This document shows, piece by piece, positions 9,587-28,102 of a DNA stretch of 32,000 nucleotides (its first letter is position 1; each line of letters opens with the position of its first letter). A program made the translations under genes and the position numbers. Source of the DNA: Patescibacteria group bacterium (GTDB taxonomy: Bacteria; Patescibacteriota; Patescibacteriia; 2-01-FULL-39-33); contig JBAZMW010000004.1 of assembly GCA_041649575.1 (NCBI GenBank), forward strand, positions 1 through 32,000. The letters run 5' to 3'. Below the pieces are notes generated by a model. It was given only the letters and a program-made list of their open reading frames with translations, was not told the DNA's origin and did no database searches.

Positions 9587-9724
9587 GTCCCCGTAGTTCA
9601 ACGGTTCGAGGCTGAAAGCCGAGAAGGATTAGAAGCGACCCGCTCAGAAGCGAAGCGCTTTGAGCGGGGAGCGATCGGAAATATGCCACTGACATATTTC
9701 CGCTAATCCCGGACAGAACACCAG
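9587..9724 (+). other. truncated tRNA-Arg 5' fragment whose D-loop carries a 110-nt structured insert
   Basis: 9582-9604 is identical to 9746-9768 (TTTTTGTCCCCGTAGTTCAACGG). 9715-9724 is identical to 9771-9780 (AGAACACCAG). The intervening 9605-9714 folds into P1 GGATTAG/CTAATCC, hairpin A CCCGCTCA/TGAGCGGG and hairpin B CGGAAATATG/CATATTTCCG. No T-arm or 3' acceptor strand follows. Confidence 0.7.
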
Positions 9725-9750
9725 TCATGTTCTAAAATAGATTATTTTTT

Positions 9751-27704: not shown

Positions 27705-27733
27705 TTGAAAATTCGAAAAAAATAGGTTATATT
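27705..27733 (+). promoter_or_regulatory. promoter of the tRNA-Ile/Val operon (TTGAAA-N17-TATATT)
   Basis: TTGAAA at 27705-27710, a 17-nt spacer, and TATATT at 27728-27733. Confidence 0.5.
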
Positions 27734-27765: not shown

Positions 27766-27838
27766 GGGCCAGTAGCTCAGGGGTTAGAGCACCGCTCTTA
27801 TAAAGCGGGGGTCGGTGGTTCAAATCCACCCTGGCCTA
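27766..27838 (+). tRNA. tRNA-Ile with genomically encoded TAT (UAU) anticodon
   Basis: Manual cloverleaf: acceptor GGGCCAG/CTGGCCT, D-arm GCTC-AGGGGTTA-GAGC, anticodon arm CCGCT-CTTATAA-AGCGG, T-arm GGTGG-TTCAAAT-CCACC, discriminator A. The body closely resembles bacterial tRNA-Ile. Confidence 0.85.
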
Positions 27839-27897
27839 CAAAAACAAATTGGAATTAAAAGTTAATTGTTTTTAAAAAAGTAAAGACTGACATTAAA

Positions 27898-28021
27898 GTG
27901 GATTTGAAGGGCAGTAATGAGCCAAATCCCGCCACCGGCGGGATGAAGGCGAGACGCCCGCCAAATCCGAGCAAGCGCAGGATTTGGCGCTGCCCCGGAC
28001 CCAAATCCACCCTGGCCTACA
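27898..28021 (+). other. structured G+C-rich insert ending in a duplicated tRNA-Ile 3' fragment
   Basis: The 20-mer CAAATCCACCCTGGCCTACA occurs at 27821-27840 (in the tRNA) and again at 28002-28021. GTGGATTTG (27898-27906) pairs with CAAATCCAC (28002-28010). GGGCAG (27909-27914) pairs with CTGCCC (27990-27995). GCCAAATCC (27921-27929) pairs with GGATTTGGC (27980-27988). An inner hairpin is CCCGCC-ACCG-GCGGG. Confidence 0.65.
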
Positions 28022-28028
28022 AGAATGA

Positions 28029-28102
28029 GGACGGCTAGCTCAGTTGGTTAGAGCACTATCTTGACGTGATAGGGGTCAGAGGTTCGAATCCTCTGCCGTC
28101 CA
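28029..28102 (+). tRNA. tRNA-Val (anticodon GAC)
   Basis: Manual cloverleaf: acceptor GGACGGC/GCCGTCC, anticodon arm CTATC-TTGACGT-GATAG, T-arm AGAGG-TTCGAAT-CCTCT. Confidence 0.9.

Follow-up and report, generated by a model that had tools for sequence, protein, structure and literature searches.

The window analysed here, a 32,000-nt stretch of DNA from a Patescibacteria group bacterium whose genome is present in a landfill sample (contig JBAZMW010000004.1, positions 1 to 32,000), carries between its genes for tRNA-Ile(UAU) and tRNA-Val(GAC) a 181-bp stretch that, as judged by comparison with related genomes, is an insertion, and that is very probably a member of a family of elements, inserted here at the T-loop position. 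The family, which is apparently undescribed and widespread in Patescibacteria, consists of small (about 110-190 nt), non-coding, structure-constrained insertion elements located at the loop-coding positions of tRNA genes. Membership of the window copy in this family, constraint on the structure, tailoring to the host tRNA, derivation of the flanking duplicates from the target and spread to different tRNAs within genomes were all observed. The further reading that the insert is a mobile, non-autonomous element, copied into breaks at tRNA-loop DNA, was judged to have an even chance of being correct.

Insertion between tRNA-Ile and tRNA-Val

An earlier note, made from the sequence of this DNA, had claimed that a direct repeat of the tRNA-Ile 3' end flanks the insert. 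Both copies of the repeat were found, with exact identity over 21 nt, or over 24 nt with one mismatch, and a start-to-start spacing of 181 nt. The repeat spans T-loop position 56 of tRNA-Ile(UAU) to 3-6 nt beyond the discriminator; its 20-mer CAAATCCACCCTGGCCTACA occurs in the window only at 27821-27840 and 28002-28021, and a match was obtained in 0/100 shuffles. The Ile-Val spacers of relatives, whose comparison had been suggested in the same note, were examined in twelve related genomes of other genera: the conserved core of the element is absent from all twelve, and the spacer measures 1-13 nt in ten of them and 39 and 59 nt in the other two. The downstream repeat copy is followed by AAGAATGA and tRNA-Val, an arrangement resembling the short, ancestral-looking junctions of these relatives. 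The proposed integration into a tRNA 3' end was therefore retained as regards insertion, since the spacers of relatives are mostly 1-13 nt long, but not as regards a classic att site, because there is no integrase, the duplicates are variable and target-derived, and sister copies carry 5' duplicates. No integrase was found in or near the insert, the only two tyrosine recombinases of the genome being located on another contig, nor in any family copy that was examined. Among the contigs of the single DNA run, matches to this stretch were short pieces of tRNA only, from other organisms; one contig joins 27839 to 28028, with 27 nt on one side at 90% likeness, which is too weak to represent an empty allele.

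That the insert encodes no protein was confirmed, as no open reading frame (ORF) longer than 51 aa is present in the 161 nt between the repeats; a coding role was rejected because only chance ORFs of 23-51 aa occur. A promoter-like site was found only upstream of tRNA-Ile and no terminator was found before tRNA-Val, so that co-transcription of the insert within the tRNA operon, as had been supposed, is plausible; judging from the consensus match, the promoter-like site probably drives an Ile-insert-Val transcript.

Fold, covariation and distribution of the element

The inserted DNA consists, in order, of A+T-rich filler, an 11-nt antisense copy of the TΨC-coding stretch, a multi-helix core and a short linker (Table 1). 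The minimum free energy of its predicted fold is -63.2 kcal/mol (z-score -5.1), a stability not matched by any shuffled sequence. The nested stems and inner hairpins were recovered as first described: an outer 9-bp stem, GTGGATTTG/CAAATCCAC, of which the duplicated T-loop/T-stem does form part, encloses a 6-7-bp stem (GGGCAG/CTGCCC), a 10-bp stem (27959-27968/27980-27989) and two inner hairpins. The antisense arm GTGGATTTGAA (27898-27908) complements the real tRNA T-loop/T-stem (27819-27829) at 11/11 positions and the downstream duplicate over only 9 nt. According to the model, pairing of the antisense with the sense tRNA piece would close the core like a clamp on the tRNA-sense strand. When the fold of tRNA-Ile is predicted together with that of the insert, the distal duplicate competes for the tRNA 5' acceptor strand and can replace the tRNA's own 3' strand. 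A competing pairing through CCAAATCC, which had also been proposed, proved peculiar to the window copy, the helix having other sequences in other copies.

A second copy, whose G+C-rich half is 78% identical to that of the window copy, stands behind tRNA-Ser(GCU) on a different contig of the source genome. Downstream of it comes an 18-nt duplicate of the 3' end of its own tRNA, again from position 56, and the helices of this copy show compensatory changes relative to the window copy. An initial alignment of 14 copies from eight genomes was prepared using MAFFT, the consensus structure was derived using RNAalifold, yielding 20 pairs of which 13 show double changes, and a covariance model, R1, was built. 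When 115 copies were aligned, 97.8% of cells proved to be paired, and compensatory changes on both sides were seen at each of the 20 pairs, a result reached by 0/500 shuffles, with slid controls at 28-41% paired. The 115 copies were aligned by fitting to the model, a procedure that favours pairing; the independent MAFFT alignment of the 14 copies agrees in direction. G-U pairs exceed A-C mismatches by 42 to 14, indicating that it is the tRNA-sense strand whose fold is under constraint, whether as RNA or as single-stranded DNA.

The search of the genome for further copies of the insert, which the earlier note had recommended, yielded 7-9 copies, all beside tRNA genes. Each of the seven R1 matches in this 0.92-Mb genome (E up to 1) adjoins a tRNA gene and shares its strand, and two diverged copies, found via partial tRNA duplicates behind tRNA-Gly(UCC) and before tRNA-Arg(UCU) at 9587-9750, bring the number to nine; each of the nine stands beside a tRNA on its strand with a partial duplicate of that tRNA. 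In the copy at 9587-9750, core helix P1 is GGATTAG/CTAATCC, and the core is followed by a stretch resembling tRNA positions 21-31 and by a spacer. Across genomes the core copies number in the hundreds. R1 matched 29 of the 34 genomes of the same bacterial family, with 2-24 copies each, and 33/151 genomes of the class; besides the source genome it matched 1/150 genomes in a phylum-wide sample, which includes some genomes of the same class. A comparison with Rfam, likewise recommended, gave no family for the core: only tRNA matches were obtained at the gathering score, nothing credible covered the core at E up to 10, and no family covered the core of eight other copies at E up to 0.01. No description of such tRNA-loop elements was found in full-text literature searches or in Rfam.

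The possibility was considered that the insert is an inert scar, either a decayed attL/attR remnant or the filler of a single repair event, with a structure due to chance, and the earlier note would have accepted a decayed remnant if structure conservation and covariation were lacking and no stable RNA was detected. For conservation and covariation the outcome was the opposite, both being strong. The insert is short, gene-less and repeat-flanked, as a scar would be, but the hundreds of core copies, the compensatory changes in every helix, the fold z-score and the recurrence of the same layout at about 20 tRNA species leave this explanation with next to no probability, and it was rejected on copy number, family distribution and covariation.

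Table 1. Coordinates of the insert, its surroundings and related loci. Positions refer to the window unless prefixed; G000 denotes the source genome and the C-number its contig.
Feature	Position	Strand	Remarks
Promoter-like site TTGAAA-17-TATATT	27705..27733	+	Upstream of tRNA-Ile; consensus scan only
Intact tRNA-Ile, anticodon UAU, host gene	27766..27839	+	ARAGORN and Rfam tRNA model, 71.4 bits
Direct repeat copy 1, tRNA positions 56-73 and 3-6 trailer nt	27821..27844	+	Within functional tRNA
A+T-rich filler/spacer	27845..27897	+	Weak hairpin 27840-27847 / 27866-27873; not conserved among family copies
Antisense arm, 11-nt reverse complement of tRNA positions 54-64	27898..27908	+	5' half of putative clamp stem
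Conserved structured core	27909..27999	+	Covariance model R1 83.7 bits, E 1.8e-16; covariation
Core P1	27909-27914 / 27990-27995	+	
Core variable hairpin; small hairpin	27926-27944; 27948-27958	+	
Core P3	27959-27968 / 27980-27989	+	Conserved GA...A internal loop, mini-hairpin 27969-27979
Conserved NGGA, 3' end of core	27996-27999	+	
2-nt linker CC	28000..28001	+	Linker 0-78 nt across family
Direct repeat copy 2, displaced tRNA-Ile 3' fragment	28002..28025	+	3' half of putative clamp
tRNA-Val(GAC)	28029..28102	+	Downstream neighbour
Diverged D-loop-type family member, 5' side of tRNA-Arg(UCU)	9587..9750	+	R1 E 0.008, filters off
Parts of 9587..9750	9587-9604; 9605-9625; 9626-9713		Duplicate of tRNA-Arg(UCU) 1-18; hairpin; core; intact tRNA from 9751
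GIY-YIG genes in partial tRNA duplicate-cargo-intact tRNA architecture	G000:C4:90288-90488; G000:C4:46997-47212	-; -	tRNA-Ser(CGA); tRNA-Ile(GAU)
Nested tRNA loci	G000:C4:103840-104160; G000:C2:213970-214200; G000:C4:35380-35700		Short complementary spacers flank inner gene

Layouts and tRNA-derived arms

The layout was surveyed in 114 distinct copies from about 45 genomes, associated with about 20 host tRNA species. The layout of the window copy is shared by 44/114 copies and comprises the intact tRNA, a trailer or filler in which terminator-like hairpins are common, then, abutting the core, an antisense copy of positions 53-63 of the tRNA, the core, a linker and a sense duplicate running from about position 54-60 to the tRNA end. 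A mirror layout, found in 23/114 copies, begins with the leader and tRNA positions 1-19 or 1-47, followed by a GTC...GAC hairpin, the core with NGGA, 10-17 nt that continue the tRNA, a spacer and the intact tRNA. In 47/114 copies there is no tRNA within 200 nt; nearly all of these belong to three genomes, in which the core lies inside G-run/C-run hairpin repeats. At one locus (L114, G007:C7:27800-29000) such a composite of G-run hairpin and core is embedded, on the opposite strand, in a gene for reverse transcriptase, the reading frame of which stays open over 401 aa, recalling the in-frame insertion of palindromic elements.

The duplicates follow the landing position: T-loop copies carry 3' duplicates, D-loop copies mostly 5' duplicates and variable-loop copies either kind. 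The inner end of the duplicate is fixed and the outer end varies, giving lengths of 10-67 nt, and the orientation of tRNA-associated copies is always that of the tRNA strand. In many cases the duplicate continues for 20-60 nt into a trailer or leader peculiar to the species (examples being the Met-Leu spacer of one genome and a His trailer including its terminator), indicating that the duplicates were made at the insertion site. In 24 copies the antisense arm agrees with its own tRNA at 8-11 of the 11 positions, and in 23 of these at 9-11, a tailoring that covers the unusual T-loops TGCGAAT, TTCAAGT and TTCAACT. The arm also matches tRNA positions 54-57 (64/64), which many sense duplicates lack, the duplicate starting at position 58-64 in many copies. 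At tRNA-Arg(CCU) (G000:C4:122385-122440), a 17-nt duplicate of the 3' end follows after only 34 nt with no core, and may be a deletion derivative or an empty duplication.

These observations bear on the alternative that the insert is a miniature integrative element, or the remnant of one, moved by a site-specific recombinase. In that case a small circle, possibly single-stranded and folded, would bear the tRNA 3' part, the clamp would mimic attP and a tyrosine recombinase supplied in trans would act in the T-loop, by analogy with tRNA-targeting islands, integron attC sites and the folded attP of CTX phage. A direct repeat from the T-loop to the tRNA end is the classical signature of the T-loop sublocation, the clamp reproduces the T-arm sequence as a duplex, and the genome has two tyrosine recombinases. 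Ectopic copies with the spacer and part of the left repeat, present in two genomes (G066 L091 and G165 L106), are likewise as expected if an excised circle re-integrated through short homology. However, none of the copies examined has an integrase, and duplicates of 10-67 nt that contain species-specific trailers or leaders point to synthesis on site and not to a carried att core. Paralogous cores at different tRNAs have wholly different duplicates, so that each new tRNA end would be needed before integration; the D-loop and variable-loop copies with 5' duplicates would require other crossover sites; and where the sense duplicate starts at 58-64, as it often does, an 'attP duplex' of only 4-6 bp is left. 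Movement by a recombinase was accordingly considered unlikely.

Two further identities were considered. The duplications are variable and long, in contrast to the short target-site duplications of fixed length made by miniature inverted-repeat transposable elements (MITEs); the only inverted pair, which was sought as a counterpart of MITE terminal repeats, is that of the antisense arm and the tRNA duplicate, which is target-derived and different at each site. An archaeal-type tRNA intron with a bulge-helix-bulge motif was dismissed because no match to the splicing endonuclease PF01974 was found in the 97.9%-complete genome and an uninterrupted tRNA stands beside every copy.

Spread among tRNA genes and the case for a cellular function

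The nearest relative of a core was found at a different tRNA of the same genome in 12/62 cases, compared with 2.4 expected, while in 7 cases, compared with 3.3 expected, it was found in another genome at a tRNA of the same type. Copies at tRNA-His and tRNA-Gln in one genome have cores that are 88% identical, each with its own tailored arms. Together, the counts and the His/Gln pair indicate that within genomes the core passes from one tRNA to another, acquiring its arms from each new target. The nearest relative of the window copy is the Ser(GCU) copy of the same genome, at 76% identity, and tandem repeats of the unit occur in two genomes.

A host-useful structured RNA gene, not primarily mobile and processed from tRNA operons, was weighed against this reading; its arms would interact with the cognate pre-tRNA or tRNA, or with processing enzymes, as a maturation checkpoint, decoy or mimic. 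Purifying selection on the structure is strong, with an excess of G-U over A-C when the tRNA-sense strand is read; the element always has the orientation of the tRNA, and co-transcription is plausible at Ile-Val. The elements are kept in streamlined genomes of about 1 Mb, in some insertions shared between species conservation is higher in the core than in the spacer, the predicted fold lets the distal duplicate compete for the tRNA 5' acceptor strand, and the antisense arm is tailored even where only the real tRNA can pair. A functional-RNA reading therefore stays alive, owing to the structural constraint, the fixed orientation and the probable co-transcription. Its probability is nevertheless low, because the distribution is patchy (5/34 genomes of the bacterial family lack the element, 33/151 in the class have it and it is almost absent outside the class), the copy number ranges from 0 to 24, and the occupied tRNAs differ between genomes. 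Moreover, three genomes have most of their copies in G-run hairpin repeats away from tRNAs, one copy lies inside a reverse-transcriptase gene, units are duplicated in tandem, and terminator-like hairpins often separate the tRNA from the core.

Proposed mechanism and candidate nucleases

If the insert is indeed mobile, break-dependent and non-autonomous, a nuclease would break the TΨC-coding DNA, the landing site of the window copy being T-loop position 55/56 of tRNA-Ile(UAU), and the element would be copied in from another copy, with repair synthesis giving rise to a direct duplication of variable length and a short inverted copy. Local duplication of positions 56-73 and a few trailer nucleotides would leave an intact tRNA-Ile upstream and a displaced fragment before tRNA-Val. 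The survivors would be those insertions whose repair duplication passes the nearer tRNA end, since only those keep the gene intact; such selection would account for the 3' duplicates of T-loop copies and the mostly 5' duplicates of D-loop copies, with a variable outer and a fixed inner end. We infer both the break and the enzyme, and the active form may be RNA or single-stranded DNA.

The best candidates for the break-maker are GIY-YIG nucleases of 90-130 aa, whose genes occur here in an identical architecture of tRNA, cargo and partial duplicate; that GIY-YIG enzymes specifically make the break is put forward as a tentative suggestion. The genome has six small GIY-YIG genes (94-128 aa). One lies between a duplicate of tRNA-Ser(CGA) positions 1-18 with a G+C-rich double hairpin and the intact tRNA, which has a family copy on its 3' side, and another, interrupted by a TAA stop codon, is located between tRNA-Ile(GAU) and a duplicate of the 3' part of that tRNA. 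Of the other four, one precedes tRNA-Glu(UUC) by 54 nt and two have inverted repeats of the GTCATTGCGAG type on either side. In eight other genomes GIY-YIG genes lie within about 500 nt of cores, and small GIY-YIG genes are present in 23/29 core-bearing and 1/5 core-less genomes of the bacterial family (one-sided Fisher about 0.02).

Several observations weigh against mobility through nuclease-made breaks. The co-occurrence of GIY-YIG genes and cores is weak because related genomes are not independent and both favour tRNA loci; six core-bearing genomes have no small GIY-YIG gene and one core-less genome has four. There is no nuclease gene in or next to the window copy, and the small GIY-YIG proteins of Patescibacteria have no DNA-binding domain. 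No pathway tried yields both the 11-nt inverted copy and 18-53 nt of unrelated A+T filler: fold-back priming on a nicked T-arm, template switching to a displaced flap and hairpin opening of the P-nucleotide type were each considered for the inverted copy, and each accounts for only part of the layout. Neither a filled/empty polymorphism within a species nor an excision product was seen among the copies and genomes surveyed. Clean loss of the element is possible by recombination between the repeats, so that a single gain at Ile-Val is argued from parsimony alone. Finally, at tRNA-Pro(CGG) in two species of one genus the cores are 99% identical and the spacers roughly 75% (estimated by eye and not computed); insertions shared between species in this way indicate that some are inherited, and the pattern also fits a selected function.

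A retroelement resembling short interspersed nuclear elements, whose RNA would be reverse-transcribed at a T-loop nick by target priming, predicts that the 3' junction is fixed, that the 5' end varies and has filler, and that the target duplication differs in length from copy to copy. The variable duplication length, the 5' filler and the fixed T-loop junction agree with this prediction, the fold is constrained on one strand, and the genome has two reverse-transcriptase genes (359-376 aa; G000:C3:74894-75508 and G000:C3:188740-189411, both on the minus strand) with small neighbouring ORFs. Both genes score under the group II intron cut-off and are probably diversity-generating retroelements. 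Across the 34 genomes of the bacterial family, however, reverse transcriptases do not co-occur with the element, genomes with 14 and 11 copies having none and one copy-less genome having three, and dependence on reverse transcriptase was rejected on these grounds. In addition, the enzymes look like those of diversity-generating retroelements or group II introns with loci of their own, there is no A-tail or other 3' signature, and the locally tailored antisense arm is left unexplained, so that retroposition appears very improbable.

A speculative form of the nuclease reading would make the core a guide scaffold, as RNA or folded single-stranded DNA, with the antisense 53-63 and sense 56-76 arms addressing both TΨC strands and recruiting a minimal nuclease; its chances are slight. 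If true, it would amount to nucleic-acid-guided homing into tRNA genes, in which each copy is reprogrammed to its own tRNA and GIY-YIG proteins of 90-130 aa act in trans.

Further observations at tRNA genes

Intact genes for tRNA-Val(UAC), tRNA-Thr(CGU) or tRNA-Arg(UCG) were found nested between the 5' and 3' parts of a second copy broken near the anticodon loop (Table 1). Another family of G+C-rich hairpin inserts occurs near the D-arm of pseudo-tRNA copies (G000:C3 about 170990-171125 and, on the minus strand, G000:C4 about 47300-47370), with the common stretch CCCGCC...GAACGGC...GTTCAG...GGGCGGGG, and a near-full pseudo-tRNA-Asn with three unrelated inserts is present in another genome (L102). 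At L015 (about 130-480, G007:C16) a small ORF lies between tRNA-fMet and a D-loop-type copy before tRNA-Met; its translation, by eye, resembles what we take to be a four-helix-bundle protein of the 23S rRNA intervening-sequence type. The UAU anticodon of tRNA-Ile (27766-27839) is encoded in the genome. No match to TilS (lysidine synthetase) was found in the 97.9%-complete genome and ARAGORN identified only two CAU tRNAs, suggesting that AUA is probably decoded without lysidine.

Comparison with known systems

Islands and prophages with tyrosine integrases reportedly use a T-loop sublocation of tRNA and transfer-messenger RNA genes, a finding attributed to Williams in 2002. Like these, the element is inserted in the T-loop, is bounded by a direct repeat from the T-loop to the gene end and leaves an intact tRNA regenerated on one side. 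The islands, however, are kilobases long and have an integrase and a fixed att core, whereas the element is gene-less and has variable, target-derived duplicates that reach into trailers; the element also adds an antisense copy, and 5' duplicates accompany its sister copies at D-loop and variable-loop positions.

Short, gene-less, G+C-rich folded repeats include MITEs, REP/BIME sequences, Correia elements, Rickettsia palindromic elements and the GC clusters of yeast mitochondria. Such small structured repeats are scattered in small A+T-rich genomes, some of them in RNA genes or in frame in protein genes. We know of none that has sense and antisense copies of the target at each site, and of none that regenerates a gene by a long duplication. 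The core of the element differs from them in being a branched junction with conserved unpaired nucleotides and not a simple palindrome.

The bridge RNA of IS110 elements is a dual-guide RNA that addresses both DNA strands. The tigRNA of TIGR-Tas systems, which occur in parasitic bacteria and phages, is likewise a structured dual-guide RNA for both strands (PMC12045711). The likeness to the element, a structured RNA between two short target-matched segments, one for each strand, is conceptual only: the element has no tandem 36-nt units, no gene for a Nop-domain protein or an IS110 recombinase lies beside its copies, and its arms overlap and pair.

In the rRNA genes of the candidate phyla radiation (CPR), short ORF-less insertions, mostly <200 bp, have been described at the tips or bases of stem-loops, together with insertions encoding GIY-YIG proteins, and these are neither group I nor group II introns (PMC11270868). 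Compared by description, they differ from the element in disrupting the rRNA gene itself, and duplication of part of the gene is not among the features described.

SegB, a free-standing GIY-YIG homing endonuclease of T-even phages, recognises a 27-bp site in which the conserved 11 bp correspond to the TΨC motif of tRNA genes, GGTTCRANTCC; cleavage by SegB takes place at several, variable positions in the direction of the tRNA 3' end (PMC2330249). A 2026 study reported the motif RAWTSGAAC at SegB cut sites and recombination-dependent segmental duplication around tRNA genes (PMC13096335). The 11-bp target is the stretch that the element copies in antisense, RAWTSGAAC being its other strand, and the small GIY-YIG genes found here share the architecture of a tRNA with a partial duplicate. 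The junction at position 55/56 lies in a host T-loop, GGTTCAAATCC, that fits GGTTCRANTCC, an agreement of position only and not of cleavage. SegB differs in being the product of a phage protein-coding gene with a DNA-binding part of its own, whereas the element is a 160-nt non-coding fold in a bacterial chromosome, to which the link is inferred.

If the present interpretation is true, the tRNA genes of the CPR have been colonised by undescribed, tiny structured parasites that rebuild an essential gene by partial duplication. This would explain many 'pseudo-tRNA' fragments and odd tRNA spacers, which matters for annotation, and would link such fragments to minimal GIY-YIG nucleases and to the nuclease-driven segmental duplications of phages. 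It would also provide a natural model of the way in which tRNA genes come to be split, nested or fragmented, and site-tailored sense and antisense arms around a conserved fold would be an unusual design that could represent a new targeting principle. Site-specific insertion into tRNA genes with regeneration of the gene is already known in general, as are small non-autonomous repeats; what is new is the miniature gene-less form with a conserved branched core, sense and antisense arms matched to each site, and the targeting of several tRNA loops.

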